Source of the DNA: a virus
Strand: one strand, 5' to 3'
UHGV virus genome: UHGV-0124609
Length of the DNA: 14,435 nt
The number at the start of each line of letters is the position of its first letter. Positions within the stretch are counted from its first letter, which is position 1. This document shows, piece by piece, positions 162 to 13,813 of the stretch. The notes under the pieces were generated by a model, which worked only from the letters and a program-made list of their open reading frames with translations, had not been told where the DNA came from and searched no databases. A program made the translations under genes and the position numbers.

Positions 162-644
162 TTATTCTTCTTCGAAATACTTGTTCTTGATTGCCGTCAG
201 GCGTTCCAGGTACTCGGCCAGGTCTTCGTCTTTAATCGCGGTAATCTTCATCTTCTTACCGGTGAACTCTTCCAGCAGTTCGTCGGAATCATCACACGCG
301 GCATCGCTAGGACCTTCGTTAATCGCATCGTCGATAGCCTGAATCTGGCCACGAAGAGACTTGTAATCGACTTCTTCTTTCTCTTCTTCCGGCTCTGGCG
401 TCGGTTCCTCTACTTTAGCTTTACGCGGCTTGCGTTTTGGCTTCTCTTCTTCCGCCGGTTTGGTGTCAACGATGTCTTCACCTTCGACCGGGATTTCTTT
501 TGTTGTCTCGATTGTTGCGGTTTGTTCAACGACCCCGGCGACTAATGCAGTTTTTGCAACATTAACTTGTTTTGCACTGTTCGCAGCAATCAGTTCATGT
601 GCAACTACGAAACGTTCCAGTAATTTTAAAAATTGTTCTAACAT
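162..644 (-). CDS. hypothetical acidic protein (160 aa) with a Lys/Pro/Glu-rich low-complexity linker and acidic C-terminus (…KYFEEE)
   Basis: Complete ORF in the six-frame track; ATG (revcomp of 642-644) preceded by a strong SD GAGAGGAGAG (revcomp of 649-658); near-consensus sigma70-like promoter upstream. Translation has a structured N-terminal ~45 aa, then KPAEEEKPKRKPRKAKVEEPTPEPEEEKEE, then an acidic C-terminal domain. Confidence 0.8.
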   Translation of the reverse strand: MLEQFLKLLERFVVAHELIAANSAKQVNVAKTALVAGVVEQTATIETTKEIPVEGEDIVDTKPAEEEKPKRKPRKAKVEEPTPEPEEEKEEVDYKSLRGQIQAIDDAINEGPSDAACDDSDELLEEFTGKKMKITAIKDEDLAEYLERLTAIKNKYFEEE

Positions 645-769: not shown

Positions 770-985
770 ATGCAACCATCTGAACTAGGCATCCGTGTAG
801 AGCAACGCCGCAAAGAACTCGGCATCTCTCAACGCCGTCTGGCGGTCCTGGCTGGCGTTTCCCAGGGCGCGATTAATCAGCTGGCGCTCGGTGTAACTCA
901 GGACGTACGCCCGGCAACACTGTTCAAGCTGGCGGAAGTGCTGGAAGTAGACGCCAAGTGGCTGGCGTTCGGTGAAGGGGCTTAA
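770..985 (+). CDS. XRE-family (Cro/CI-type) helix-turn-helix transcriptional regulator, 71 aa
   Basis: ATG 770 with SD AAGGAG at 756-761 (8-nt spacer). Translation contains a classic HTH signature LGISQRRLAVLAGVSQGAINQLALG. It is the only rightward gene in a leftward block, diverging from the 160-aa gene. Confidence 0.85.
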   Translation: MQPSELGIRVEQRRKELGISQRRLAVLAGVSQGAINQLALGVTQDVRPATLFKLAEVLEVDAKWLAFGEGA

Positions 986-1000
986 GCCCCTTTCTTTTTA
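975..1000. terminator. intrinsic terminator: perfect 18-bp palindrome AAGGGGCTTAAGCCCCTT followed by a T-rich tract, between the convergent HTH and primase genes
   Basis: Palindrome at 975-992 (7-bp GC-rich stem, TTAA loop) followed by TCTTTTTA at 993-1000; overlaps the stop codon of the HTH gene. The T-tract is on the plus strand, so termination is mainly for the rightward transcript. Confidence 0.6.
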
Positions 1001-1001
1001 C

Positions 1002-3242
1002 CTATTCTAAATCCTCCTCTGTCACCACCAGCATTTCATTCGGCTCATATATCGTCTTTGGTCTTAATCTGTCACCCATCTTTTCCGGTATCCGGTAGGT
1101 GCCCGGTATAACTTCACCGTTAACATCGCACCCTAACATCAACTCACCGTCTTTCAGCATCTTCTCGAGATGATGGTTGGTTATGGCGTGGTCGCCCGAA
1201 TTCGCCACTATCTGCCGTTGTGTAAAACCTCGTCCGGTGTCGTCTGACTGTTGCAGGTCCTCCAGCGCGGCAAGTATTGATTCCTTACGCCCTTCATCCT
1301 TTCCACGTTTTACAGCGTTCTTTACGTTTTCTTTACCTTCTTTCGTCAGCCCTTCTTCCCGCTCTTTCTCCTCGTCAGTTTTGAACGGCTCGAAACCCCA
1401 CGGCATCAGCACAAGCGCCTTGTGCGGCTCAGGCAGGTCCAGGTTTACGATTGTGCCGTATTCCTCTGTGCTACCCAGGAACTCAACCGCACGGTACTCT
1501 TTCGGCGGTGGTGCTTCACGGAACTGTACCGACTCCAGCACCATGCCAACCGTCTTCTGTTGAGGCCCGTGCTTAAATTTAGAGTGGTATACGTTTATCT
1601 GACGGTCGGTAGCGCGTTCAATTGTCAGTTCCACGTCAACGCCCGCATACAGCGCGCCGCTGCCACGGGCTTTCTTTCCGCCCTTCGGTGTGTGGTGAAC
1701 AACACCTACCGCGGCTTTAGTCGCATCACGCACTTCTTTCAGGATGGCGATAACTTTACCCATACCGATTGCCGTTGATGAACTGTTCTCGTCAAACTTA
1801 TCAATCGTCAGGGCCAGGGTCTGGTTGAGGGTGTCAAACGCGACCATGCCGATAGGTTCATCGCCAGCGGTTTCACGCATTAACTTAATCAGGTTTTTCA
1901 GTTTTCCGACTTCGCCCATGTCGATGACATGTACATAATCTTTACCTTCCTCTCCGTATTTAGCCGCGAGTGCATCAATACGTGTGCGGGTAGCCGCGCC
2001 ACCCTCACCGTCGATATAGAAATGGTGACAGCGCTGGGTATCCGCCCCTGCGAAGCGATAGCCAGCGGCGCTAAGGTACATCACCCCCAGCGTATAGAAT
2101 GATTTGTACGTGCCAGATTCTCCGACGATATCCCAGATACAATCCGACGGCATGTACCCTTCTACGACGAAATCAGCCTTTACCGGTTCTGGTAATTCGT
2201 CCTCCTCGAAGTCCTCGTCGTCTTCCAGGTCGTCCAGGCTGCATGAAACGGATTCACGCGCACCCCATCCGATAGCCTCAGCCACTTCACTAAACGGCAG
2301 CCCGGTCGCGTCGCACGCATACTTCCACACCTCTTTCGGTGACATGCCTTCGGTTGCCGTAATGTCGGTGTCGTGAATCATGGTTACGTTCGGTGCTTCG
2401 TAGCCCTCTCGCGGGAAACACAGCAGGAAGTCGTCCGGCCGCGGTGTCGGGTCGCTGTAGTTTTCCGCATGTTCTGGTGTGGCGGGCATCTTAAGGCCGC
2501 GAGGTGTCATGACACCGCCGTACTCAAAAGCCAGTGCCTCGAACGCGTCTGTAAACGCGGTGCGCAGTTCTTCCGGTATCTGGTAATCCGATGCGCTGCT
2601 CACCTCGTAATCCGGGATGCCTTCCAGTAACTCATCCGGGTCAATCAGGTCGTTGCGACGCGACCAGATAACCTGAGAGCCAACCGGCGGCAGGTACATC
2701 GGTTGGGACAGAGTAAACCCGCTGCGGTCAGCGCCCATGCCTTTGAAGAAGTGCTCCAGCAATCCATGACGAACACGGATGATGTCGCCACCCTCAACAG
2801 GACTGGCCAGCGGCATGACGACACGAAAGCGCGGAGACTCATCGGTATGGGATGCCGTGGTATATAGGCACATCGCCTGGCGGCTGCGCTTAACCAGGCG
2901 CACAGCTTCCTGATACTCTTCCGGCGTTGCACTGTCGAAGTCCAGATACGCCAGCGACGATTTGCTTACAGACGCATCACAGCGATAGAAGAAGCCTTTA
3001 CGCGCTTGCTTAAAGTCGCCGGTTTCCAGGTCTTTTACGGTGCTGTGAGTAGAGTCGCACGCGGCGGTGATATATCCCGGCGCGGTCTTCGGGTTAATCC
3101 CGTCTCGGACAGAATCGAGCGGCTGGATTAACTCTTTCAGGTCGTCCAGTGTTGCCGTGTGTGTAGTTCTGACGTTTATATCCTTTTTCTCTGCTCGCGC
3201 GTTGCGGCGTGACCACGAGTAGGATAAAATTACATCGGACAT
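1002..3242 (-). CDS. putative replication primase/helicase (N-terminal primase-polymerase-like region plus a RecA/DnaB-like P-loop NTPase region), 746 aa
   Basis: Long complete ORF; ATG (revcomp of 3240-3242) preceded by SD GAAGGA with an 8-nt spacer. Translation contains a P-loop-like motif IVGESGTYKSFYTLG and a Walker B-like hydrophobic stretch ending in D (GMVAFDTLNQ), an acidic linker (DDLEDDEDFEEDELPE) and an acidic C-terminus (…VVTEEDLE). Family assignment is from motif pattern only. Confidence 0.85.
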   Translation of the reverse strand: MSDVILSYSWSRRNARAEKKDINVRTTHTATLDDLKELIQPLDSVRDGINPKTAPGYITAACDSTHSTVKDLETGDFKQARKGFFYRCDASVSKSSLAYLDFDSATPEEYQEAVRLVKRSRQAMCLYTTASHTDESPRFRVVMPLASPVEGGDIIRVRHGLLEHFFKGMGADRSGFTLSQPMYLPPVGSQVIWSRRNDLIDPDELLEGIPDYEVSSASDYQIPEELRTAFTDAFEALAFEYGGVMTPRGLKMPATPEHAENYSDPTPRPDDFLLCFPREGYEAPNVTMIHDTDITATEGMSPKEVWKYACDATGLPFSEVAEAIGWGARESVSCSLDDLEDDEDFEEDELPEPVKADFVVEGYMPSDCIWDIVGESGTYKSFYTLGVMYLSAAGYRFAGADTQRCHHFYIDGEGGAATRTRIDALAAKYGEEGKDYVHVIDMGEVGKLKNLIKLMRETAGDEPIGMVAFDTLNQTLALTIDKFDENSSSTAIGMGKVIAILKEVRDATKAAVGVVHHTPKGGKKARGSGALYAGVDVELTIERATDRQINVYHSKFKHGPQQKTVGMVLESVQFREAPPPKEYRAVEFLGSTEEYGTIVNLDLPEPHKALVLMPWGFEPFKTDEEKEREEGLTKEGKENVKNAVKRGKDEGRKESILAALEDLQQSDDTGRGFTQRQIVANSGDHAITNHHLEKMLKDGELMLGCDVNGEVIPGTYRIPEKMGDRLRPKTIYEPNEMLVVTEEDLE

Positions 3243-3299
3243 ATTATAATTCCTTCAGCAAGTAATTTGGCCTCGGCGCTCTAACGTCGGGGCTTTCTT

Positions 3300-3533
3300 T
3301 TATTCCAGGTCTTCTAAAGTAGCGGTCATTCCGCGAACTTCAGCGACAGCACTATATTTCCCGCCGACATTTTTCACGACACCGGATTTAACCAACACCT
3401 TCAATGACCCTTCAATGATGGCGGAACTATAGTACTTAAAATAACTGCGGCGCAAGTCGATAACACTGCACGACCCTTTTTTACGTGTTAATGAAACGAC
3501 CGCCGTAAATACGCGTGACTGGAACTCGGTCAT
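3300..3533 (-). CDS. hypothetical small protein (77 aa), possibly winged-helix DNA-binding; translationally coupled to the upstream AlpA-like gene
   Basis: Complete ORF whose start overlaps the stop of the upstream gene by 4 nt (ATGA). The assignment of a winged-helix fold is a weak guess from the pattern SLKVLVKSGVVKNVGGKYSAV. C-terminus …TATLEDLE resembles the primase C-terminus. Confidence 0.7.
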   Translation of the reverse strand: MTEFQSRVFTAVVSLTRKKGSCSVIDLRRSYFKYYSSAIIEGSLKVLVKSGVVKNVGGKYSAVAEVRGMTATLEDLE

Positions 3534-3700
3534 TTCACGTTCTCCTTAATCCACGCTTCCACTTTCTCCGGGTCAAACGTACCTGGCTGCCGGCGGCCCA
3601 TAATGCGGGTACAGCAATCAGGGAACTTCCCGCTCTTTAACCAGTTATTCAGCGTGCGACGAGTAACCCCGATGCGCTCTGCTACTTCATTCTGCGTCAT
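3530..3700 (-). CDS. AlpA-family-like HTH DNA-binding protein (phage transcriptional regulator/excisionase-like), 56 aa
   Basis: Translation MTQNEVAERIGVTRRTLNNWLKSGKFPDCCTRIMGRRQPGTFDPEKVEAWIKENVK matches the AlpA/HTH_17 pattern (HTH, then FP, then a conserved W). ATG at the revcomp of 3698-3700 has SD GAGGG with a 7-nt spacer; the ORF track's longer form starts at TTG 3727 with no SD. Confidence 0.8.
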   Translation of the reverse strand: MTQNEVAERIGVTRRTLNNWLKSGKFPDCCTRIMGRRQPGTFDPEKVEAWIKENVK

Positions 3701-3732
3701 TCTCAAACCCTCATTATCAGTTAACAAAATCG

Positions 3733-4197: not shown

Positions 4198-4416
4198 ATG
4201 AACAAAGCGACCGCAAGCGTAGTTTCCGCAATCAAAGAAGTTTACGGCATCGATATTTCAGAGCGCGTAATCATCGGTAATAAGCGCAACTTCTTTACGT
4301 TCGACACCGACGGAATGGATGAAAATGATTTTATCAACGTACAACGTTTCGCTAATGATAGAGGGCTTCGTAACGAGCCTGCAGGTTACAAGAAATTCGC
4401 TATCTACTTTAAATAA
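4198..4416 (+). CDS. hypothetical protein, 72 aa
   Basis: Complete ORF; ATG 4198 preceded by a purine-rich leader (AACGAGACATAAGGAATTTAGAA); first gene downstream of the 4135-4163 promoter. Confidence 0.8.
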   Translation: MNKATASVVSAIKEVYGIDISERVIIGNKRNFFTFDTDGMDENDFINVQRFANDRGLRNEPAGYKKFAIYFK

Positions 4417-4434
4417 GACAGAGGAGTGATGGTT

Positions 4435-4623
4435 ATGTTTAAGAAGGGTCAGTTGGTCAAAGCTGTAAATAGCAATTATTTCATTGTTGAAAGCGAGTCT
4501 GCAGTTTTTCCGAGGGCTTATAGAGTAAGTTTTATACGGGAAAGATTAGGAGCGGTAACTTGGTTCCGTGAAGATGAGCTAACACTCATCGGCAACAATT
4601 TTAAATTCAAAGGGGCGAAGTGA
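4435..4623 (+). CDS. hypothetical protein, about 62 aa
   Basis: ORF 4426-4623 in the track; ATG 4435 is best placed relative to SD GAGGAG at 4421-4426 (8-nt spacer). Alternative in-frame starts are GTG 4426 and ATG 4429. Confidence 0.75.
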   Translation: MFKKGQLVKAVNSNYFIVESESAVFPRAYRVSFIRERLGAVTWFREDELTLIGNNFKFKGAK

Positions 4624-4877
4624 TGGAAGAATTAATTTGTATTGAATCTGGTCCAGATGTGCGGCATTGGTTTGTAAAAGGTAACAAGTATTCGTCAGGG
4701 GTATATTACGACGGCCGTCGATACGTTTTAGATGAAGACGGTGATGAATGGGACTTAGAGCAATCACATGGTGAAGCCTTTACCGTGAATTTCCTGGGCA
4801 CACCCGCCATAACATTCACAACGGCATCGAATCATGATGCTCGTGCCGATGACTCTGAGGGAGGTTGCCGTGGATAA
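4623..4877 (+). CDS. hypothetical protein, 84 aa
   Basis: ATG 4623 overlaps the upstream TGA stop (TGATG), indicating translational coupling; an AGGGG SD-like lies upstream. Confidence 0.75.
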   Translation: MEELICIESGPDVRHWFVKGNKYSSGVYYDGRRYVLDEDGDEWDLEQSHGEAFTVNFLGTPAITFTTASNHDARADDSEGGCRG

Positions 4878-4899
4878 TATTTTAATGGTGGAGGTTGAT

Positions 4900-5094
4900 A
4901 TGAGCCCGTATAACAAATTTCGCTTACGCCGTCTTGTTGGTGGTCTGCGCGCCGCCGAGTTTGGTGTTGAATGTTGGGAAAAGGCGAAATATACCCCATG
5001 GAAGTCGTGGCATTTGGTTCATGCTAAGGCGGTAGCACAGTACCGTGAGTACAAGTTAAACAGTTTCCTTAAGCACCACGGGGTTGAGTTATGA
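4900..5094 (+). CDS. hypothetical protein, 64 aa
   Basis: ATG 4900 with SD GGTGGAGG at 4887-4894 (5-nt spacer). In-frame alternative starts at GTG 4870 (SD GAGGGAGG), ATG 4885 and ATG 4834 cannot be excluded. Confidence 0.65.
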   Translation: MSPYNKFRLRRLVGGLRAAEFGVECWEKAKYTPWKSWHLVHAKAVAQYREYKLNSFLKHHGVEL

Positions 5095-5252
5095 GAGAAG
5101 CATTTGAACGGTGGGCCGTCGTAGAGGGTCTGCCGGTTAACAAGGGTTCGAAGAAAGAGTACCTGACCGTTAAGACACGTCTTGCGTGGCGGGCGTGGAA
5201 AGCTGGTGTGCAATTTCGTGCTGGTGTAACAGGTGGTGTAACAGGTCAATAG
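5091..5252 (+). CDS. small hypothetical protein, 53 aa (not in the ORF track)
   Basis: ATG 5091 overlaps the upstream stop (ATGA); frame open to TAG at 5250-5252. Translation MREAFERWAVVEGLPVNKGSKKEYLTVKTRLAWRAWKAGVQFRAGVTGGVTGQ; the C-terminal GVTGGVTG comes from a tandem repeat. Confidence 0.5.
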   Translation: MREAFERWAVVEGLPVNKGSKKEYLTVKTRLAWRAWKAGVQFRAGVTGGVTGQ

Positions 5253-5274
5253 GTTACTATTTGTCTTTGTGTCT

Positions 5275-5333
5275 TACGCTGCTACACAGCAGCGTACAAC
5301 TTTAACTTAGTGTCGTCAAAAGGCGACACTTTT
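5275..5333 (+). terminator. pair of stem-loops after the first early-gene block; the second is followed by TTT(T)
   Basis: Hairpin 1: 9-bp perfect stem at 5275-5283/5288-5296 with a 4-nt loop and no U-tract. Hairpin 2: 7-bp stem at 5309-5315/5324-5330 with an 8-nt loop, followed by TTT at 5331-5333. Confidence 0.35.
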
Positions 5334-5400
5334 CACCAAACGCAACAATCGAAGCGACTATTGCAGGAGATGCAACAATACAAACACCAATAAAATTTAC

Positions 5401-5429
5401 TTGCACACTGGGATAGAATAGACTACTAT
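5401..5429 (+). promoter_or_regulatory. promoter TTGCAC-N17-TACTAT with an AT-rich upstream element
   Basis: -35 TTGCAC at 5401-5406, 17-bp spacer, -10 TACTAT at 5424-5429; AT-rich CCAATAAAATTTAC immediately upstream; ATG at 5461 lies 32 nt downstream. Confidence 0.55.
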
Positions 5430-5460
5430 TCATTTACACGAACGAGAGGATAGACAGAAG

Positions 5461-5610
5461 ATGGTTACTTTGATGATTATGGAATTCGAAAACAGCGCTG
5501 CAACTTACCGCGAGATGACTATGGCGCAGGCGTACCATCTGGCATCAAACGGCAGCTTCTACAAGGCTCAAATCATCAATGAGTTCGGGGTAATTGACTA
5601 TGAATTTTAG
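5461..5610 (+). CDS. small hypothetical protein, 49 aa (not in the ORF track)
   Basis: ATG 5461 preceded by the leader AACGAGAGGATAGACAGAAG; frame open to TAG at 5608-5610; its 3' end overlaps the start of the next gene. Confidence 0.55.
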   Translation: MVTLMIMEFENSAATYREMTMAQAYHLASNGSFYKAQIINEFGVIDYEF

Positions 5611-5872
5611 AAGATACACCGTTACCGTTGATTTTGAGGGGCTGGATTTGCCCCTCCCCAACAACTACCGGTATATAACCCGTGACCGTTTCGGGTTTAT
5701 TCAGGGGTGGCGTAACAAGCCGACAGACACTGAGTTCGGGATGTCGGGTGGTGAAGAGTTGCCGATCACGTTCGGGCACCAAAGTAGTAACGAAGAGCTT
5801 AAAACTGTGATTCGTAAGTATCGTCGCCGGGGTAAAACTGAACTTATCGCAATAACAGGCGCTGTTGAATAA
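5600..5872 (+). CDS. hypothetical protein, 90 aa
   Basis: ORF 5594-5872 in the track (TTG); the first ATG is at 5600 with a GGGG SD-like upstream. Confidence 0.75.
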   Translation: MNFRRYTVTVDFEGLDLPLPNNYRYITRDRFGFIQGWRNKPTDTEFGMSGGEELPITFGHQSSNEELKTVIRKYRRRGKTELIAITGAVE

Positions 5873-5891
5873 ACGAGAGGAGAGACGGAAG

Positions 5892-6320
5892 ATGAGTAAC
5901 AAAAACGAAGTATTCGAGTACCTGATTGACCAGCTACGGCAGCAGGTAAATAAGAAAGATGTGACATCTTTCAATGTATCTGTGCAGATATCCGACCTTG
6001 ATGAGGTCAAGCAGGTAGTCCACAACCTACAGCAGCATATCGCAGGTAAGGATGACGAAATACGTGCGCTGAAAGACAGTTTACGGCAGCAGGTAAATAA
6101 CAACCAGTGCGAAGACCTGGCGCATGAGGTGCAGTCACTTAAGAATCAGTTACGTGATGCGTCGGCGCTGGTGGCTGAGTTGCAGAAAGAACTTGATGTC
6201 GCGAATAGCACCGTAGCTCGTTTGAGTAAAGAGGGGGTACAGAGGTGCAACCATGTTTGGTACAGGTACAACTTAGGCGGCTACACTAAGATGTGCCTTA
6301 AATGCGGGCTAAAGAAATGA
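5892..6320 (+). CDS. coiled-coil protein with a C-terminal Cys/His cluster (putative zinc ribbon), 142 aa
   Basis: ATG 5892 preceded by AACGAGAGGAGAGACGGAAG (the track's longer form starts at TTG 5865 inside the previous gene). Translation is heptad-like and Q/L/K/E-rich, with a repeated LRQQVN segment and C-terminal CNHVWYRYNLGGYTKMCLKCG. Confidence 0.8.
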   Translation: MSNKNEVFEYLIDQLRQQVNKKDVTSFNVSVQISDLDEVKQVVHNLQQHIAGKDDEIRALKDSLRQQVNNNQCEDLAHEVQSLKNQLRDASALVAELQKELDVANSTVARLSKEGVQRCNHVWYRYNLGGYTKMCLKCGLKK

Positions 6321-6520
6321 CCAGCATCTTATTTATCTGGGTACTGGCCGCGGGCCATATGCACCTAGCGGCAACAGAAACGTTTTACTCGATGGAGGCG
6401 TGCCAGTCAGCGGCACGCGCCGCGGAGAACGCGCACTTTCTGTTTCAGGGTGACAAGCCCAACGATTCAGAGGTACGCGCTATCTGCTCACCTAAGCGAC
6501 TTAGCAAACAGGAGAAGTGA
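6302..6520 (+). CDS. small protein with an N-terminal hydrophobic segment (signal peptide or membrane anchor), 72 aa
   Basis: ORF in the track; N-terminus MRAKEMTSILFIWVLAAGHMHLAA has a positively charged n-region followed by a hydrophobic stretch. Alternative start ATG 6317 overlaps the upstream stop (ATGA). Confidence 0.7.
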   Translation: MRAKEMTSILFIWVLAAGHMHLAATETFYSMEACQSAARAAENAHFLFQGDKPNDSEVRAICSPKRLSKQEK

Positions 6521-6522
6521 TT

Positions 6523-6774
6523 ATGGTTGTACGATATGACTTAACAGAAGATTTTGCGGGTACAGTAGATATAACGCCTGTCCCGGACTCGCATGAAGGA
6601 CGTTATGTAAGCTACGAAGATTACGCGAAACTCGAAGCCGAACTTCTGGAAATAAAAGCTGCAGCCCGTTGTCTTGTGCGAGAAGCGAGTAAGGTGTATA
6701 GCGATTATAGTGACGTTATAGCGCCTGAGTTTGTAGACCAGCAAACCATATACGAACTGGGCATTCTGCTATGA
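6523..6774 (+). CDS. hypothetical acidic protein, 83 aa
   Basis: ATG 6523 with SD AGGAG at 6510-6514 (8-nt spacer); the track's longer form starts at GTG 6517. Confidence 0.75.
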   Translation: MVVRYDLTEDFAGTVDITPVPDSHEGRYVSYEDYAKLEAELLEIKAAARCLVREASKVYSDYSDVIAPEFVDQQTIYELGILL

Positions 6775-7064
6775 GCCTCGCAACGGACATCCTGGAACGA
6801 AGCGGCCTTGCGCCGCTGGCACCGAGAGCTAAAACACGGATACACAAGCGTCGCCGTAACGCGCTGTACCCTGAGATTCAGGCCAGACGCAAAGCGGTAC
6901 GCGCCTGTGGATTCCAGAACGGGAAGGCTGTGAACCTCGGTGAGTTTAAAACGCAGGAGCGCGCTGCAATCGCTAATCGGTTATTTAATTACTGGAAATC
7001 GCTGGGATACGATGATATCCCGACGAAACCACAGAGGCGACAATACATCTGGCGTCATAAATAA
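6771..7064 (+). CDS. hypothetical basic protein, possibly DNA-binding (weak AP2-like pattern), 97 aa
   Basis: ATG 6771 overlaps the upstream stop (ATGA). Basic N-terminus (KTRIHKRRRN) and the segment GFQNGKAVNLGEFKTQERAAIANRLFNYWKSLGY are consistent with an AP2-like fold; this is a pattern guess only. Confidence 0.7.
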   Translation: MSLATDILERSGLAPLAPRAKTRIHKRRRNALYPEIQARRKAVRACGFQNGKAVNLGEFKTQERAAIANRLFNYWKSLGYDDIPTKPQRRQYIWRHK

Positions 7065-7139
7065 ACCGTTATTAGGATAATTCCTACCCGTGGTATCCTC
7101 CAGTTACTGCATACTTAATACGCACCTGGAGGATTCATC

Positions 7140-7448
7140 TTGGATAAATTTACTGAAACAGTGACGGGGTGGCTTCTCGCTGCCGCACTAGCCGGAGGGG
7201 TAATCGGGCTACGACAACATAAGTCCGTTATTTCAGGCCCAATAGACGGCTTCTGCTTTATTGCAACAGGCTTCACCTGCGCCGTATTTGGTGCACCTCT
7301 TGCGGCCCAATGGTTTGGCATCACGGGCGACCGTGAAATCGCAGGCCTGGGCTTCATTATCGCTATTCTCTGGATGCCTATCTATTCCCGCCTTTCTGGC
7401 ATCGTCGCCGGAGAATACATCGCACGTCGAGGAGGCCCGGATGAATGA
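7140..7448 (+). CDS. holin-like membrane protein (three predicted TM segments, charged C-terminus), 102 aa, TTG start
   Basis: TTG 7140 with SD GGAGGA at 7128-7133 (6-nt spacer) and no in-frame ATG nearby. Hydrophobic segments WLLAAALAGGVIGL, FCFIATGFTCAVFGAPLAAQWFGI and IAGLGFIIAILWMPIY; lies immediately upstream of the endolysin. Confidence 0.7.
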   Translation: MDKFTETVTGWLLAAALAGGVIGLRQHKSVISGPIDGFCFIATGFTCAVFGAPLAAQWFGITGDREIAGLGFIIAILWMPIYSRLSGIVAGEYIARRGGPDE

Positions 7449-7713
7449 GTTATTCTGGTTCGGCGGTATGCTGGCAATCGGAGGCACATCGCTGTTTAAT
7501 GTATACCACTCCAGCGTTGACGACGGACTATTTGGTAGGGTGCTCTATATCCTGACCGCTATTGTCTGTGCCGCCGGATGTATCCACCTGTTACAGGGCA
7601 GCATGTCGCCCACGCTGCCAGAGACATTAATCACATTAGTTGCGCTGCGTCAGATTCGCCAGGCGTGGCTGGCATACGGAGGACATAAGCGTGTCTCGAA
7701 ACATTTCAGATAA
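7441..7713 (+). CDS. second holin-like/antiholin-like membrane protein (at least two TM segments), 90 aa
   Basis: ATG 7441 with SD GGAGG at 7431-7435 (5-nt spacer), overlapping the upstream stop (ATGAATGA). Hydrophobic segments LFWFGGMLAIGGTSLF and VLYILTAIVCAAGCIHLL; basic C-terminus. The track's 7261-7713 ORF is an upstream extension in another gene's coding region. Confidence 0.7.
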   Translation: MNELFWFGGMLAIGGTSLFNVYHSSVDDGLFGRVLYILTAIVCAAGCIHLLQGSMSPTLPETLITLVALRQIRQAWLAYGGHKRVSKHFR

Positions 7714-8179
7714 TGGGCTGCATTTCACCGCCGCATTTGAGGGGTTCCGGGGAACTGCGTATCGCGCTACGCCGAACGAAAAGTACCTGACTATCGGGTA
7801 CGGTCACTACGGCCCAGACGTAACACCCGGTAAGACCATCACACCGGGGCAGGGCCTCCTGTTACTGAATCGCGATATGGCTAAGGCCGTGGCTGCGGGT
7901 GATGCAGCAGCGCACCATTCGCTGACACAGGCGCAGTTCGACGCGGTGTGTGACCTGGTCTATAACGCGGGTGCTGGTGTGATTGGGGTTAATACTGGCA
8001 CGGGTAAGGCGCTGCGTTCTGGTGATATTGCGACGCTGCGTGCTAAGCTGGCGCTGTTTATCAACCAGAACGGCAAACCGCTACTAGGCCTGCGTCGCCG
8101 TACTGCGGGTCGGCTGGCGCTGTTCGACGGTAAACCGTGGCAGGAGGCTGAGGCTATTGGGCGCGCGGTGAAAGGTTGA
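7691..8179 (+). CDS. endolysin, phage lysozyme (GH24 / T4-lysozyme-like family), about 162 aa
   Basis: Translation contains the family hallmarks FEGFRGTAY and TIGYGHYG. GTG 7691 has SD GGAGG at 7678-7682 (8-nt spacer); the track's form starts at TTG 7640 with no SD. The gene overlaps the preceding holin-like gene by 23 nt. Confidence 0.9.
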   Translation: MSRNISDNGLHFTAAFEGFRGTAYRATPNEKYLTIGYGHYGPDVTPGKTITPGQGLLLLNRDMAKAVAAGDAAAHHSLTQAQFDAVCDLVYNAGAGVIGVNTGTGKALRSGDIATLRAKLALFINQNGKPLLGLRRRTAGRLALFDGKPWQEAEAIGRAVKG

Positions 8180-8245
8180 CACCTAAGACCAATCCGACGA
8201 TACTTAAATCACCTCCTGCTCCATCCCTCTGCTCTCCAGTTTTAT

Positions 8246-8277
8246 CCCGGCCCTGACCCAGCCGGGATTTTTTTTTA
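8246..8277 (+). terminator. strong rho-independent terminator after the lysis cassette
   Basis: Stem CCCGGC/GCCGGG at 8246-8251/8261-8266 with a 9-nt loop, followed by ATTTTTTTTTAT. Confidence 0.75.
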
Positions 8278-8298
8278 TCTATTTTCTGTAATGACTAG

Positions 8299-8328
8299 TT
8301 GACTATTACCTACGACCCTACTATATTT
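8299..8328 (+). promoter_or_regulatory. sigma70-like promoter (TTGACT-N18-TATATT) for the 8361-10328 block
   Basis: -35 TTGACT at 8299-8304, -10 TATATT at 8323-8328; the AACGAGA leader motif at 8339-8345 and ATG 8361 follow. Confidence 0.5.
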
Positions 8329-8360
8329 ACTTCGCCGACAACGAGAACGGGGTAGAGAAG

Positions 8361-8510
8361 ATGAAAATCACAGATACCGAAGCATTCAAAGACGCACAAC
8401 TGATGGCACGCATCGCCGTTAGTAACCTGAGCAACAGCATTCCGGCGGACGCGTTCTGGTTCGCTGCGATGCAGACACTGAAAGCAGCTTATGCAGGAGA
8501 GAAGAAATGA
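8361..8510 (+). CDS. small hypothetical protein, 49 aa (not in the ORF track)
   Basis: ATG 8361 preceded by AACGAGAACGGGGTAGAGAAG; open to TGA at 8508-8510, overlapping the next start (ATGA). Translation MKITDTEAFKDAQLMARIAVSNLSNSIPADAFWFAAMQTLKAAYAGEKK. Confidence 0.55.
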   Translation: MKITDTEAFKDAQLMARIAVSNLSNSIPADAFWFAAMQTLKAAYAGEKK

Positions 8511-8704
8511 AAGTTAAAGCCACTAAAATTCTCTGGTTAGCCGCCCTTGACTATGTCACAGAGGGTAAAGTGTATGATGTATACAACCCGACAGCTACTG
8601 GTTTCGGTTATATAGACTCCGACGACGACTGCCATATTTTCATAGACTTTGGTAACGATGACGGTGATGGTTTCCACGGCGTTAAATGGGAGGTTGTAGA
8701 ATGA
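8507..8704 (+). CDS. hypothetical acidic protein, 65 aa
   Basis: Complete ORF in the track; its start overlaps the upstream stop and its stop overlaps the next start (ATGA at both ends). Confidence 0.75.
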   Translation: MKVKATKILWLAALDYVTEGKVYDVYNPTATGFGYIDSDDDCHIFIDFGNDDGDGFHGVKWEVVE

Positions 8705-8862
8705 GTGAACAAGGCCCAATAAACCAACCATTACGAGTAGGTCGTAAAGTCAACCACACCCCGTTCCCGACACGTGAGGAACTGATGAAACGCAACAGTT
8801 TTCCGGGGCCGGACAAGAACAAGTATCTAAATCGCATGTGGGGAGAGCGTAAAAATGACTGA
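8701..8862 (+). CDS. small hypothetical protein, 53 aa (not in the ORF track)
   Basis: ATG 8701 overlaps the upstream stop (ATGA); open to TGA at 8860-8862, overlapping the next gene by 8 nt. Translation MSEQGPINQPLRVGRKVNHTPFPTREELMKRNSFPGPDKNKYLNRMWGERKND. Confidence 0.55.
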   Translation: MSEQGPINQPLRVGRKVNHTPFPTREELMKRNSFPGPDKNKYLNRMWGERKND

Positions 8863-9079
8863 CCGAGACTATGAAAAGATGATGGTAGAGGCCGTTAACA
8901 GCGGCGTAGACATTAGCTACGTGATGCACGTCCTGAATACTAAAATCGCGGTAGCCGAGCAAATAGTTGAGTCGCTTTACGAGACACGCCGTGAACTAAT
9001 TAACCGCTTCAACCTGAACAAAGGTGGCACCAATGCCATCGACACCGACAAAATTCCGGACCTGAACCTGGAGGATTAA
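8855..9079 (+). CDS. hypothetical protein, 74 aa
   Basis: Complete ORF in the track; ATG 8855 preceded by the purine-rich GGGGAGAGCGTAAAA. Confidence 0.7.
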   Translation: MTDRDYEKMMVEAVNSGVDISYVMHVLNTKIAVAEQIVESLYETRRELINRFNLNKGGTNAIDTDKIPDLNLED

Positions 9080-9084
9080 CAAAA

Positions 9085-9384
9085 ATGAGTAGTAGCACAT
9101 TAGATAAAATTGAAAAAATGCAGGTCATCCTGCGAAATATGAAATCAGACATTAAGCGACAGGACCGGTTGAATTCAATAAACAGAATGGAACTAACTAC
9201 GAAGCAAGCGCAGAAGCGCAATGCTGAAGCGGCATGGATAGCAATGGAACAGATTAAGCGCCGTCATGAATTGCATGCCTTGTCTGTTGAGTTGGGGTTT
9301 GCAGAACGAAGGGATGATTATAGCGCAATAGAGTTAACTGACGGATGGCATTGCTTTACTTACAAACCAAGAGAGCCAGATTGA
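9085..9384 (+). CDS. hypothetical protein, 99 aa
   Basis: ATG 9085 with SD GGAGGA (CTGGAGGATTAACAAAAATG). Confidence 0.75.
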   Translation: MSSSTLDKIEKMQVILRNMKSDIKRQDRLNSINRMELTTKQAQKRNAEAAWIAMEQIKRRHELHALSVELGFAERRDDYSAIELTDGWHCFTYKPREPD

Positions 9385-9483
9385 GCCACAAGAAATTTGC
9401 AATTAGCCGTGAGCACGCCGCCGTAGTGGCCGACGATATACGAGAAACGGCGTGGCTTGGTGATGGGATAGTGGGGTGATTAT

Positions 9484-9654
9484 ATGTTCAGTGACATCAA
9501 CGCAGCAATAGAAGAAGCAATCTGGCGTCGCTACAACGGCGAACAGCAACGGCACTTCTGCCTGGTGCAACGGGGTAACATGATTGCTGTAGTGCAGGAC
9601 CGCGACAACAAATATCCGAATGCGATGTGGACAACGAGGAATTTCTTAGGATGA
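9484..9654 (+). CDS. small hypothetical protein, 56 aa (not in the ORF track)
   Basis: ATG 9484 preceded by GGGGTGA; open to TGA at 9652-9654, which overlaps the next start (ATGA). Translation MFSDINAAIEEAIWRRYNGEQQRHFCLVQRGNMIAVVQDRDNKYPNAMWTTRNFLG. Confidence 0.5.
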   Translation: MFSDINAAIEEAIWRRYNGEQQRHFCLVQRGNMIAVVQDRDNKYPNAMWTTRNFLG

Positions 9655-9887
9655 TTACCAGCATCCCAAACCTGATTAAAGAATACGGCACGATGGCCGA
9701 GACATGCCGACAAACCGGCATCAACGAAATGACGATTGCGAAGTACAGCAAAGACGTGAATTGCGAGCGCCACGTAATTTATAACAACCGTCTTATGACG
9801 CACGTTAAGACAAGTCCGGTGTTATTCACGCGCCGTGGTATCACTAAAACTGAGCAACGCATTGCTAAAGAGGAGAGCGGGGGATGA
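9651..9887 (+). CDS. hypothetical protein with a possible helix-turn-helix segment, 78 aa
   Basis: ATG 9651 coupled to the upstream stop; the track's form starts at GTG 9627. The segment MAETCRQTGINEMTIAKY looks HTH-like; this is a weak inference. Confidence 0.7.
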   Translation: MITSIPNLIKEYGTMAETCRQTGINEMTIAKYSKDVNCERHVIYNNRLMTHVKTSPVLFTRRGITKTEQRIAKEESGG

Positions 9888-10066
9888 TTGATATTTTGAA
9901 AGTTACAAATGCCGTTGGCTGCCTGGTGTTTTGGTTGGCGTTTCTCGGTGTGCTGATAAAACAACCGACTTTGTTTAACAGTCTTCCTAGTTATCTGTGG
10001 TGGCCTATGTTTTTAGGCATGGTTGTATCAGGCGTGGCGGGCATCCTTTTGTGGTTTTTCAAATGA
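9884..10066 (+). CDS. small integral membrane protein (two predicted TM segments), 60 aa
   Basis: ATG 9884 overlaps the upstream stop (ATGA), with SD AGGAGAG upstream. Hydrophobic segments AVGCLVFWLAFLGVLI and YLWWPMFLGMVVSGVAGILLWFF. Confidence 0.7.
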   Translation: MIDILKVTNAVGCLVFWLAFLGVLIKQPTLFNSLPSYLWWPMFLGMVVSGVAGILLWFFK

Positions 10067-10178
10067 GATTACTAATAATACCTAACGCCTGGGTTATCGC
10101 TGTAGCTAACGACCATTACGGTGGCGACGGTAAAAGAGCACAACGACACGGCCTATATAACTGATTGGAGAGTGAAAA

Positions 10179-10328
10179 ATGATTGAATTTGATGATGTTT
10201 TATTTGAGAAATATAACGGAAGGGTGTTTTTGACTGTGATGTACGGTGTTTACTCAAAGTCCTTTGACGGGTTTTCGAAAGCAGATTGTATAAATCAACT
10301 ACTATCGTGGGTCGCAAGACGCAAATAA
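10179..10328 (+). CDS. small hypothetical protein, 49 aa (not in the ORF track)
   Basis: ATG 10179 with SD GGAG at 10167-10170 (8-nt spacer); open to TAA at 10326-10328, immediately followed by a terminator. Confidence 0.5.
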   Translation: MIEFDDVLFEKYNGRVFLTVMYGVYSKSFDGFSKADCINQLLSWVARRK

Positions 10329-10337
10329 CCAATAACA

Positions 10338-10362
10338 AGCCCTCTACGGAGGGCTTTTCTGT
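10338..10362 (+). terminator. rho-independent terminator (AAGCCCTC-TACG-GAGGGCTT then TTCT)
   Basis: 8-bp perfect stem at 10338-10345/10350-10357, 4-nt loop, then a T-rich tail. Confidence 0.65.
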
Positions 10363-10389
10363 ACATCCCACCCAATCCACTTATATAAT
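10360..10389 (+). promoter_or_regulatory. candidate promoter for the packaging operon (TGTACA-N18-TATAAT)
   Basis: Consensus -10 TATAAT at 10384-10389; weak -35 TGTACA at 10360-10365. A palindrome follows immediately downstream. Confidence 0.4.
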
Positions 10390-10395
10390 CCCTTT

Positions 10396-10414
10396 AGACG
10401 CGTAGGGCGCGTCT
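10396..10414. promoter_or_regulatory. perfect inverted repeat AGACGCG-N5-CGCGTCT between the promoter and the terS start; candidate operator or 5'-UTR hairpin
   Basis: 7-bp arms at 10396-10402 and 10408-10414 with a 5-bp spacer; a third direct AGACGC half-site lies at 10432-10437. Confidence 0.4.
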
Positions 10415-10454
10415 GGTGCGCTCTGATGGTCAGACGCATATGCAAGGGGATTCT

Positions 10455-11000
10455 ATGAAGCTGAAACTCAAGCAGCCATCGCCAGAGGTGGTGCAAGCTG
10501 CACATGAAGAAGCTGTTAGCGCAAACCGTCGCCGTAAACGACCGCGCGGTAAACAGAGCCTTTATCAATCGTCCCGTAACTCCGCTGCGCTGTGGGACCC
10601 GGACTATTGCGACGAATTGATTAGTTTCTTTGACCGCACGTCATGGGAACTTGTGCCCACGTCTAAGGGTGACGAACGTCCGCTGATTCAGGATAAGCCA
10701 CCATCTCTGGCCCGCTTTGCCTTACACATCGGCGTCACTATCCCTATTATCAAGCTGTGGCTGCGTGAGATTCCCGCATTTGCAGAAGCCTGGGAGACCG
10801 CACAGGCGCTTGAAGAGGCGTACTTCACTGAGACCGGGGCCGCAGGCATCTCGGCTACGTTCGCTGCCGCGAAACTTGGCCTTGGCAAAGAGAAACCGGT
10901 TGAATCCACCGAAGAAACAGCACCAACCGAGATTATTTTTAGTGTTGCGGAGCCTGTAGGTAAAATCGTAACAACGAATATGGGCGAGGTAGAGGAATGA
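10455..11000 (+). CDS. terS: terminase small subunit (putative), 181 aa
   Basis: Lies immediately upstream of the large terminase subunit, with its stop overlapping the terL start (ATGA). The role is inferred from position, size and a basic N-terminus (RRRKRPRGK) ahead of an alpha-helical DNA-binding-like region. ATG 10455 has an AGGGGA SD-like upstream; the track's form starts at GTG 10416, and ATG 10440 is also in frame. Confidence 0.75.
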   Translation: MKLKLKQPSPEVVQAAHEEAVSANRRRKRPRGKQSLYQSSRNSAALWDPDYCDELISFFDRTSWELVPTSKGDERPLIQDKPPSLARFALHIGVTIPIIKLWLREIPAFAEAWETAQALEEAYFTETGAAGISATFAAAKLGLGKEKPVESTEETAPTEIIFSVAEPVGKIVTTNMGEVEE

Positions 11001-12247
11001 GTATTCAGCTATCCGCACCACAGGCACTGTTCCTGAATTGCGATAACAAATACAAAGCCTATGTTGGAGGCTTCGGAAGCGGCAAGACATTTGTCGGCTG
11101 TCTGGACCTGCTTACGTTTATGCTCAAGCACCCCGGTACGCGCCTGGGCTACTTCGGCCCGACCTATCCCGCCATCCGTGACATCTTCTACCCAACATTC
11201 GAGGAAGCGGCTAACCTGCTCGGCCTTGATGTGCTGGTTAAATCCGGCGACAAAGAAGTCGTGGTTACTCGCGGTAAGACGGTGCTCGGGACCGTTATCT
11301 GCCGCTCTATGGATAACCCCGGCTCGATTGTGGGTTTCAAAATCGCCGCAGCATGCGTGGATGAGCTGGACGTATTGAGTCGTGAGAAAGCTGAGCTGGC
11401 GTGGAACAAAATTGTGGCCCGTATGCGTCTGGTTATCCCAGGTGTAACTAACCACATCTCCGTTACCACGACGCCGGAAGGGTTCAAGTTCGTCTACGCC
11501 AAGTTCAAGGAGAACCCGACACCGAGTTACTCGATGGTGCAGGCTTCCACACATGAGAACGCGCGATTCCTGCCGCCGGATTACATTAGCTCGCTGACTG
11601 AGACTTACCCAGCACAGTTGATTAACGCGTATCTGAACGGTGAGTTCGTTAACCTGACCTCCGGCAGCGTGTATTACGCATACGACCGCCGTAAGCACCG
11701 CAGCAAAGAGACAATTCAACCGGGAGACACTTTGTACATCGGGCAGGACTTCAACGTTACGAAGAACGCCAGCGCTGTGTATGTGCAGCGTAAAGACGGC
11801 TGGCATGCGGTGGCTGAACTGAAAGGCCTGTTTGATACGCCAGACACCGTGCGCGTAATTACTGAGAAGTGGAAGTCACAAGGCCACCGCATCGTTGTTT
11901 ACCCGGACGCCAGCGGCAAGAACCGCAAGACAAACTCGGCATCAATCTCAGATATTGCATTACTCCAGCAGGCCGGGTTCGATGTTCGCGCTAAATCCGC
12001 CAACCCCCCGGTTAAAGACCGTGTTTTAGCGGTGAATACCGCGCTGGAAAAAGGTAAGCTGTGGGTTAATGACCACCTATGTCCTGAGATAGCGAAGACG
12101 CTGGAGCAGCAGGCATACGACGATAACGGAGAGCCAGCTAAAGACGGCGTCATTGACCATATGGCGGACGCTCTAGGCTATCCTGTAGTTTACGAGATGC
12201 CGGTGGTTAAACCAGTAATCAACATCCCGGTGACTTTCGCACTTTAA
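10997..12247 (+). CDS. terL: terminase large subunit (ATPase plus nuclease), 416 aa
   Basis: Walker A motif GGFGSGKT near the N-terminus and Walker B-like AAACVDELD; C-terminal half carries conserved Asp residues (IGQDFN, VYPDASG, DGVIDHMADAL) consistent with an RNase-H-like nuclease domain. Confidence 0.9.
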   Translation: MSIQLSAPQALFLNCDNKYKAYVGGFGSGKTFVGCLDLLTFMLKHPGTRLGYFGPTYPAIRDIFYPTFEEAANLLGLDVLVKSGDKEVVVTRGKTVLGTVICRSMDNPGSIVGFKIAAACVDELDVLSREKAELAWNKIVARMRLVIPGVTNHISVTTTPEGFKFVYAKFKENPTPSYSMVQASTHENARFLPPDYISSLTETYPAQLINAYLNGEFVNLTSGSVYYAYDRRKHRSKETIQPGDTLYIGQDFNVTKNASAVYVQRKDGWHAVAELKGLFDTPDTVRVITEKWKSQGHRIVVYPDASGKNRKTNSASISDIALLQQAGFDVRAKSANPPVKDRVLAVNTALEKGKLWVNDHLCPEIAKTLEQQAYDDNGEPAKDGVIDHMADALGYPVVYEMPVVKPVINIPVTFAL

Positions 12248-12259
12248 GAGGATTATTCA

Positions 12260-13741: not shown

Positions 13742-13754
13742 TAAGTTCACATAT

Positions 13755-13776
13755 AGCCCCGAAAGGGGCTTTCTTA
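13755..13776 (+). terminator. stem-loop AGCCCC-GAAA-GGGGCT followed by a T-rich tail after the portal gene; possible partial terminator or attenuator
   Basis: 6-bp GC stem at 13755-13760/13765-13770 with a GAAA tetraloop, then TTCTTAT. Confidence 0.45.
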
Positions 13777-13813
13777 TAGTATGCTATTAACTTTAGCACC
13801 ACAGGGTTTATCT

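Follow-up and report, generated by a model that had tools for sequence, protein, structure and literature searches.

An acidic D-L-E peptide at the end of several replication proteins of a Kagunavirus as a possible docking tag

The stretch of DNA analysed here (UHGV virus genome UHGV-0124609, 14,435 nucleotides, called the window in what follows) belongs to an E. coli siphovirus of the genus Kagunavirus (subfamily Guernseyvirinae). In a short operon at its left end, two unrelated proteins, a 746-residue primase-helicase and a 77-residue accessory protein, finish with nearly the same acidic peptide; the same ending closes the DUF2800 exonuclease encoded on the same contig, and a related segment is present in the protein that binds single-stranded DNA (SSB). 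We propose, with a probability of about 0.6, that this ending, ...(T/S)-E-(E/D)-D-L-E, is a short linear docking peptide carried by several replication proteins and read by one common receptor site. According to this proposal, the tag would be displayed on a flexible linker at the C-terminus of replication proteins in this phage lineage and would tether its clients to a single hub; in the phage of the window these clients would be the primase-helicase, the DUF2800 exonuclease and the 77-residue protein, with the related DDLED in the SSB and in an internal linker of the primase. The tethering of helicase and SSB to the polymerase by shared acidic tails is textbook knowledge for phage T7, and it is usually regarded as a peculiarity of that phage. 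The principle is known from T7; what is different here is the peptide itself, the larger set of proteins that carry it (exonuclease, primase-helicase, SSB and a small DNA-binding accessory protein) and the existence of lineage-specific forms in several phage groups that are not related to each other. Literature searches returned genome announcements only, and neither for these phages nor for DUF2800/DUF2815 modules was an earlier description of a shared tail found. If a common receptor were confirmed, the tail would allow orphan phage genes to be assigned to the replisome by a simple sequence rule, would help to map the replisome architecture of the very common Kagunavirus and Jerseyvirus phages used in therapy and biocontrol, and might explain which replication modules can be swapped between phages.

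The shared tail and its conservation

The primase-helicase gene (1002..3242, minus strand; phrog_3228, 'replicative helicase-primase', E-value 3.9e-301) encodes a protein that ends in ...NEMLVVTEEDLE, and its last six residues, T-E-E-D-L-E (741-746; 1005..1022, minus strand), are specified by the codons ACA GAG GAG GAT TTA GAA, followed by TAG. The 77-residue protein (3300..3533, minus strand; phrog_5169, function unknown, E-value 1.1e-39) ends in ...GMTATLEDLE, and its tag, T-L-E-D-L-E (residues 72-77; 3303..3320, minus strand), is specified by ACT TTA GAA GAC CTG GAA, followed by TAA. Both tags were read directly, and both open reading frames (ORFs) with both of their ends are exactly as an earlier note on this DNA had claimed. 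It also holds, as stated there, that the codons differ (GAG GAG GAT TTA GAA versus GAA GAC CTG GAA), so that the match is not a DNA duplication; the codons likewise differ among all the copies of the tag, i.e., those of the primase, the 77-residue protein, the exonuclease, the SSB and the internal linker. The net charge is -4 for TEEDLE and -3 for LEDLE; the linkers that precede the tag, RGMTAT in the 77-residue protein and KMGDRLRPKTIYEPNEMLVV in the primase, are of mixed or basic charge. Apart from the tail the two proteins are unrelated by BLASTP and HHalign. A stand-alone copy of the primase winged helix was considered as the origin of the 77-residue protein and rejected, given that BLASTP produced only a 7-residue chance match. 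When the small-protein family was compared by HHalign with the C-terminal region of the primase, a probability of 2.3% over 12 columns was obtained; therefore, the two tails are regarded as independent acquisitions.

The shared tail is more than chance. In the proteome of the Jerseyvirus wksl3 (63 proteins) the motif [DE]DL[DE] occurs four times, all of them in consecutive replication proteins, and composition-preserving shuffles of this proteome give 1.06 occurrences. A copy placed at most one residue from the C-terminus is expected in 0.011 proteins and was observed in two, or in three if the GDLE of the primase is counted; two or more terminal copies were not obtained in any of 2000 shuffles (P = 0). 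Likewise, just the primase and the small protein end in DLE among the annotated proteins of the Kagunavirus K1ind1 (2/47).

Alignment of the orthologues, which the earlier note had suggested as a check, revealed that the terminal tail is conserved in both families across Kagunavirus and Jerseyvirus. The primase tail reads T-E-[EDGR]-D-L-E in every locus of these genera that was examined and in 116 of 119 full-length clusters, the three odd clusters comprising a truncated fragment and two in which the C-terminal domain is a different one; the Salmonella phage GE_vB_HIL (MG969408.1) was left out, as its record is marked UNVERIFIED and has the primase-helicase in at least five frames. The codons of the primase tail vary synonymously and all three stop codons are used. 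The small protein ends in [LP]EDLE in both genera, with variable linkers before it (RGMTAT, KGSQAT, KCSRAT, KCPPAS), and a 91-residue variant, 32% identical and assigned to the same PHROG (E-value 2e-38), has a linker 14 residues longer and ends in S[HR]DLE; in one or other of these forms the tag is conserved in three diverged subfamilies of the small protein. Distant primase-helicases show a near-terminal D-L-x, as in Cornellvirus (...SEEDDLEN), Eiauvirus (...ATNSDLED) and Dhillonvirus (...ATDDDLKD); this was not found in the mycobacteriophage relative of the helicase. The form T-x-EDLE, in which the shared tail was originally described, is valid for close relatives; beyond them, the robust shared core is reduced to D-L-E-COOH. 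From these comparisons, the tail appears to be conserved under purifying selection.

The primase tail is also invariant when the winged helix, the N-domain or the helicase core is exchanged. The gene is a mosaic, and the winged-helix cassette, the N-domain or the whole helicase core has been replaced among Kagunaviruses. Across the C-terminal winged-helix cassette (window 1005-1300, comparison loci L003, L004 and L037) the DNA identity to phage K1H drops from more than 90% to 20-54%, and it recovers over the last ~50 nt of the primase gene (76-86%) and in the downstream region; phage SCS44 has 31% identity over the whole helicase core, but near identity over the last 24 residues of the primase. 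Since the tail stays conserved while these domains are exchanged, they are unlikely to be its partner.

The third carrier, the DUF2800 exonuclease, is a PD-(D/E)XK enzyme of the same replication module whose gene starts ~136 nt beyond the left edge of the window. It ends in ...KRPEWNQVSEEDLE, i.e., ...QVSEEDLE. Among some 50 exonucleases sampled from Kagunavirus and Jerseyvirus, nearly all have [ST]-x-[ED]-D-L-E or a one-residue variant of it (such as TEDDLEA or TEEDL) at their end, and exonucleases at 43-56% identity keep [ST]-D-E-D-L-x. Beside the exonuclease, the DUF2815 SSB (T7 gp2.5-type) carries ...STDDLEDEDEEEDEAPRRERRRR, which contains the segment ...TDDLEDEDEEEDE. A second DDLE(D) copy of the primase-helicase lies in its internal acidic inter-domain linker, S-L-D-D-L-E-D-D-E-D-F-E-E-D-E-L (residues 335-350; 2193..2240, minus strand); it reads SLDDLEDDEDFEEDE and closely resembles the SSB segment. 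D338 and L339 of this linker are invariant across 18 diverse primase-helicases, and the Jerseyvirus primase has ...DEEDLDDEE at the same position. The SSB and the internal linker both carry long acidic runs.

That the tail has no specific function, and represents chance acidic ends, gene-end hitch-hiking at recombination joints, a protease-protective charged cap or a constraint imposed by a DNA or RNA hairpin, is very improbable. Acidic ends are indeed common in replication proteins, but the terminal copies were not reproduced by the shuffles; the last ~50 nt of the primase gene do form a conserved block beside exchanged cassettes, but the tail is conserved across genera despite divergent flanks and synonymous codon changes, and it keeps a hydrophobic Leu that a charge cap would not need. 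The stop codons of both tagged genes are followed by an A-tract and then by a GC-rich hairpin, terminator-like on the opposite (plus) strand only; the exonuclease tail, however, has a different downstream context with no hairpin. Given the hairpin-free exonuclease tail and the differing codons, a DNA-level cause from hairpins was rejected. In addition, the tails of unrelated lineages co-vary, as described in the last section.

Structural setting of the tail and candidate receptors

Two further observations support the docking tag: in both families D-L-E is kept even though the linkers before it differ in sequence and length, and the tails receive low AF2 confidence after confident winged-helix domains. 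The 77-residue protein is predicted to fold as a winged helix (AF2 predicted local distance difference test, pLDDT, 86.8), with helices at residues 3-19, 24-30 and 37-50 and strands at 53-56 and 59-66; this domain (residues 3-66; pLDDT >90) is basic, with an isoelectric point (pI) of 9.9, and the pLDDT falls to 60-68 in the tail (10-residue block means, residues 61-77). The primase-helicase consists of a poorly modelled N-domain, an AAA_25/RepA-like core, a C-terminal winged helix, a flexible linker and the EDLE tail. The helicase core of the AAA_25 family (RepA/DnaB-like; residues 352-522; 1677..2189, minus strand) matches PF13481 with an E-value of 2.4e-17 and 63.6 bits against a gathering cut-off of 27, and the helicase part of the assignment is judged sound from this match and from that to phrog_3228. 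The 'primase' label of the N-domain rests on weak PHROG matches (E-value about 4e-11), and neither a Pfam scan nor a PDB sequence search gave a match for it; PDB sequence searches with the whole primase-helicase and with its profile likewise returned nothing useful. The C-terminal winged helix (about residues 650-720; 1083..1295, minus strand) was recognised in the AF2 model by helices 675-682 and 689-697 and a wing at 702-717; its pLDDT is 76-86 and it is acidic (pI 4.75, residues 656-720). The linker that follows (residues 721-740; 1023..1082, minus strand) is predicted to be disordered, pLDDT being below 50 for residues 722-743. According to these models, the tail is found at the end of low-confidence segments that follow folded domains, and is probably flexible.

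An intramolecular role has also to be considered, in which each acidic tail would mimic DNA and fold back on the surface with which its own protein binds DNA, as is known for the tails of T7 gp2.5 and bacterial SSBs, and the likeness between tails would be convergence on an acidic end with one hydrophobic residue. The basic winged-helix core of the 77-residue protein could accommodate its acidic tail in this manner, and competition between tail and DNA is reported for gp2.5 (PMC12339929) and for Enc34 ORF6 (PMC5686142). Nevertheless, such autoinhibition is unlikely as the explanation of the shared peptide: the primase winged helix beside the tail is acidic, the same D-L-E is found on three folds that are unrelated, in other lineages the tails change together, and AF2 docks neither tail with confidence. 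It would, moreover, be compatible with a receptor in trans, given that in T7 both occur.

The T7 replisome is held together by the acidic tails of gp4 and gp2.5, which dock on basic patches of gp5, the polymerase (PMC12593628, PMC12339929). T7 and the phage of the window are alike in having a minimal replisome whose polymerase belongs to family A, whose primase and helicase are fused and whose SSB is of the gp2.5 type, and in that different replisome proteins share a short acidic end with one hydrophobic anchor and a flexible segment. As in T7, the motif is located at the extreme C-terminus, in this case of the primase and the 77-residue protein, past the last folded domain and with the stop codon directly after it, and the same peptide is found on the primase-helicase (...TEEDLE) and, sub-terminally, on the SSB (...TDDLEDEDEEEDE); the exonuclease has ...SEEDLE. 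The differences are also clear. The acidic tail of T7 covers about 17-26 residues, whereas the strongly acidic stretch here is of about 5-6 residues; the tag is also present on the PD-(D/E)XK exonuclease, whereas the T7 gp6 exonuclease is devoid of such a tail; and, unlike T7, the phage of the window carries the tag on a small winged-helix accessory protein, while its SSB motif is sub-terminal with a basic end after it. In addition, its helicase is AAA_25/RepA-like and its polymerase is but a distant relative of the family-A polymerases of solved structure. The suggestion made in the earlier note, that a shared tail means a shared partner as in T7, thus finds strong comparative support, even though the tail is not strictly of the T7 or SSB type.

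The replisome parts of this phage are PolA (family A), the fused primase-helicase, the gp2.5-type SSB, the exonuclease and an SNF2 helicase; the polymerase has no tag and ends in ...AEGAEMKRYAK. This polymerase is tentatively favoured as the hub, at somewhat less than even odds, because of the T7 precedent, because it is an untagged core component and because of the K1ind1 record (NC_041897.1). Compared with K1H, SCS44 and wksl3, that record (27511-30658) is devoid of the C-terminal ~55 residues of the exonuclease, including the tail, of the whole DUF2815 SSB gene and of the first ~30-50 PolA codons, and it keeps the tails of the primase and the small protein; the gap may have arisen naturally, by deletion in a phage that is viable, or may reflect a fault of assembly or annotation. 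Mapping the T7 basic patches onto the phage polymerase was discarded, the similarity being too low. Possible alternative hubs would be the basic DNA-binding cleft of the SSB, the conserved 160-residue protein of the operon, or a host protein, and what is said here about the receptor is inferred.

Several known systems use a short peptide in a similar way. The C-terminal tip of the E. coli SSB is DDDIPF, the bacterial clamp-binding peptide is QL[SD]LF and PIP boxes are likewise clamp-binding; the C-terminal tails of T4 gp43, gp33 and gp55 bind the gp45 clamp, and the EEVD-COOH tails of Hsp70 and Hsp90 are read by clamps of tetratricopeptide repeats (TPR). These hub-and-peptide systems are like the one proposed here in that one short terminal peptide, present on unrelated clients, is read by a single site of the hub, and EEVD and EDLE have in common the pattern acidic-acidic-aliphatic-acidic-COOH. 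The SSB system, in contrast, has one tail and many receptors, whereas the phage of the window has many proteins and one tail. No clamp, TPR protein or protein that binds the SSB tip was identified in this phage. The tail is not a mimic of the SSB tip, since it ends in EDLE-COOH and has no Pro-Phe-COOH, nor a beta-clamp motif, since ...TEEDLE and ...LEDLE have no Gln and no second or third hydrophobic position.

These mismatches bear as well on the idea that a protein of the Enterobacterales host (e.g., a replication, recombination or proteolysis factor) reads the tag, and that the phage proteins share it in order to hijack the host factor. A D-L-x tail has been found only in enterobacterial phages (Escherichia, Salmonella and Edwardsiella, with a weaker FDDLS in a Serratia phage) and not in the mycobacteriophage relative of the helicase, as would be expected for a host reader. 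However, the phage has a nearly complete replisome of its own, and analogous lineage-specific tails accompany the same module in phages of Gram-positive bacteria and alpha-proteobacteria, for which a co-evolving phage receptor fits better; considering also that the tail matches neither DDDIPF nor QL[SD]LF, a host reader is quite unlikely.

Several findings weigh against the docking tag. T7 and SSB tails are defined by a C-terminal aromatic residue, Phe in T7, whereas here Glu is terminal, the Leu at -2 is the sole hydrophobic residue and no aromatic is present. The K1H exonuclease ends in EEDSE, with the Leu changed to Ser, and 3 of 30 full-length small-protein clusters deviate (EELE in two and EDLA in one). 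The SSB motif is not terminal; it is followed by 16-17 residues with a basic ...PRRERRRR end. The polymerase is only a distant family-A enzyme, whose best PDB match has an E-value of 3.5e-8 over about 90 residues. AF2 modelled the full-length primase-helicase poorly (mean pLDDT 52, unfit for a fold search), so the description of the primase tail as disordered is weakly supported. Finally, recombination joints, and not selection, may account for part of the invariance that the primase tail shows within Kagunavirus.

The 77-residue protein and its variable slot

Outside its tail, the 77-residue protein gives few indications of its function. In Foldseek its model found generic winged-helix matches only (TM-score 0.6-0.7, probability about 1, E-value merely 1e-2), among them the N-terminal domains of LexA and MotA, the winged helix of RPA32, IclR and MarR. 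There was no Pfam or NCBIfam match, the PDB sequence search with the small-protein profile gave nothing useful, and no relatives outside its own family and fragments of it were detected either with HMMER (1.8 billion representatives) or by a word-indexed search; a 1340-residue repeat protein that appeared as a distant homologue was a spurious match. The GenBank label 'putative UvsX-like protein' cannot be right for a protein of 77 residues. Other labels used for it in GenBank, 'replication protein' and 'serine protein kinase', had no support in the searches made here, and the same is true of '13.88 kDa late protein', a name found among the neighbouring genes. The docking tag would give a testable function to phrog_5169, which is at present mislabelled 'UvsX-like' or left 'hypothetical'.

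The gene is located in a slot between the HTH_17 gene and the primase-helicase gene (window 3243-3530) that behaves as a variable cassette site in comparison with loci L003-L033 and L037. In sister Kagunaviruses the slot contains the 77-residue gene, the 91-residue variant, an unrelated gene of 96 residues (MKGVIFHDKEND...), a gene of 149 residues, a pair of genes of 70 and 42 residues, or nothing. The contents unrelated to the 77/91-residue family are all devoid of the tail, and the primase tail is unchanged in every case; since it stays unchanged whatever fills the slot, the primase does not need the small protein. The description of the tagged pair as two proteins of the replication module is retained for the primase-helicase, with regard to its helicase part, and has to be modified for the 77-residue protein, which on the basis of its variable slot is not a core replication protein. 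It would be an optional add-on client, with a basic winged helix that probably binds DNA and a tag that would plug into the hub site, so that it could act either as an adaptor between DNA and the replisome or as a competitor of other clients. The gene of 149 residues also seems to end in a winged helix.

The second of these roles can be stated as a separate explanation: the 77-residue protein would be a decoy regulator whose tag competes with the primase-helicase and the exonuclease for the receptor, and limits or times replication in the manner of Cnr of the satellite phage P4. Cnr regulates the C-terminal winged-helix domain of the P4 alpha primase-helicase. In P4, ORF106 (cnr, copy-number control) lies directly before alpha, and the arrangement in the window is similar in that a multidomain primase-helicase with a winged helix at its end is directly preceded by a small gene of the same operon, whose product is plausibly a modulator of it. 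The presence of the tag on a protein with no enzymatic domain, and the fact that it is dispensable in sister phages, agree with a decoy. On the other hand, the alpha helicase is of a different family, the winged helix of the primase in the window is acidic and may not be an origin-binding domain, and Cnr and alpha do not have a common tail. Homology of the 77-residue protein to Cnr (DUF5375) was rejected (HHalign probability 0.2% against ORF106/Cnr, no Pfam match), and Cnr/alpha is only an architectural analogue. The basic winged helix suggests DNA binding as well, and the adaptor role fits at least equally well. The decoy is rather unlikely, and it is a sub-variant of the docking-tag explanation and not a true alternative to it.

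Within the 77-residue gene, CCTTCAATGA occurs as a perfect direct repeat in tandem, at a spacing of 11 nt (window 3398-3418), which encodes ...IIEGSLKV... on the coding strand and is probably due to chance.

Tails in other lineages and the neighbouring genes

The same logic appears with other peptides in other phage lineages that have the DUF2800/DUF2815/PolA module. In the Chivirus YSD1, a Chi-like Salmonella phage (936-10742), the primase ends in ...EWDDEV, the exonuclease in ...AWDDEDDDEV, the SSB in ...EWEDEV and the SNF2 helicase in ...VWDDEE. In a Staphylococcus Triavirus the exonuclease ends in ...AEDDFDKL and the SSB has ...AEDDFDELDTDDEDFL (AEDDFDEL...); in a Rhodobacter phage these proteins have ...MDDFDDLD and ...DDDFDELEDD..., respectively. 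In Eiauvirus the primase ends in ...SDLED and the exonuclease in ...DDDLVD; T7 has ...DTDF in gp4 and ...DGDF in gp2.5, and the exonuclease of a Serratia phage shows the weaker FDDLS end. In a crude permutation test with nine lineages, which are few and not independent and to that extent weaken the argument, the exonuclease tails resembled partner tails from the same lineage more closely than those from the other lineages (P = 0.003). In these data the tail peptide co-varies between proteins within each phage lineage. A general 'tail code' can then be formulated, by which phages with DUF2800, a gp2.5-type SSB and PolA would mark every client of one hub site of the replisome, probably on the polymerase, with a C-terminal peptide of the lineage's own, namely EDLE in the present phage, WDDEV in the Chi-like ones, DDFD-x-L in some phages of Staphylococcus and Rhodobacter and D-x-D-F in T7. 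Such a code is possible, although the balance is against it. If it were true, membership of an unknown protein in the replisome, e.g., that of the 77-residue protein, could be read from its last few residues; likewise, the code would co-evolve with the receptor and would form a compatibility barrier in the exchange of replication genes between phages.

With regard to YSD1, four of its replication proteins (the P4-type primase, the DUF2800 exonuclease, the DUF2815 SSB and the SNF2 helicase) end in W-[DE]-D-E-[VE], and a protein of 138 residues ends in ...EEDDV. It has been shown experimentally that DUF2815 proteins are T7 gp2.5-type SSBs with an acidic tail, and that in ORF6 of the Enterobacter phage Enc34 the unstructured acidic C-terminal segment modulates DNA binding (PMC5686142). 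The reverse cloning primer for Enc34 ORF6 given in that study decodes to an SSB end ...WDEDEV (PMC5686142). The phage of the window resembles Enc34 in having a DUF2815 gene beside a DUF2800 exonuclease and PolA. The Enc34 work deals with the SSB tail only, and not with the same peptide on primase, exonuclease and helicase, where the peptide of YSD1 is WDDEV.

Another protein of the operon with an acidic end is the 160-residue protein mentioned above (162..644, minus strand; phrog_3127, function unknown), which has a pI of 4.55. The earlier note had drawn attention to its end, KYFEEE; this is present, and five genera conserve it as [YF][YF]-E-x-E-[ED]; the motif, however, is not that of the tag, and it closes a conserved acidic helical domain. 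The gene is syntenic with the primase-helicase in the same five genera, i.e., Kagunavirus, Jerseyvirus, Cornellvirus, Eiauvirus and Dhillonvirus. The protein has a conserved N-terminal helix (MLEQFLKLLERFVVAHELIAAN), a disordered middle region with the basic stretch KPKRKPRKAK, and the acidic helical C-domain; a PDB sequence search with it gave nothing useful. It is a candidate for either hub or client. Small acidic proteins with similar C-terminal helices are also found upstream of DUF2800 in Serratia, Staphylococcus, Streptococcus and Chi-like phages.

The order of the genes in the minus-strand operon is HTH_17 gene, 77-residue gene, primase-helicase and 160-residue protein gene. The first of them (3530..3727, minus strand) encodes an excisionase-like DNA-binding protein (Pfam HTH_17, E-value 2.9e-7); its stop codon overlaps the start of the 77-residue gene (ATGA), and its true start is likely the ATG at 3700, relatives being annotated with 56-62 residues. 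The 57-nt gap between the 77-residue gene and the primase-helicase gene contains one of the GC-rich hairpins mentioned above (3269..3294, plus strand), which scores as an intrinsic terminator on the antisense (plus) strand only, where no gene of that strand lies upstream; it may stop antisense transcripts, or serve the operon as an RNA element. The other hairpin (974..993, plus strand) is placed directly after the stop codon of the primase-helicase gene and is terminator-like for a Cro/CI-like (repressor-like) gene (770-985, plus strand) that is convergent with the primase-helicase gene. A search of the non-coding stretches for origin-like iterons that the winged-helix proteins might bind detected only short repeats of two or three copies, which may be due to chance.

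The sequence of the window is identical to the IMG/VR contig 3300045988_019110. Its left 3.8 kb has ~91% identity to many Escherichia phages, and hundreds of Salmonella Jerseyvirus genomes match this part at 80-90% identity. According to the ORF list, the remainder (4198-14435) contains many short plus-strand ORFs of unknown function, one endolysin-like ORF (7640-8179), the gene for the large terminase subunit (10997-12247) and that for the portal protein (12260-13741).

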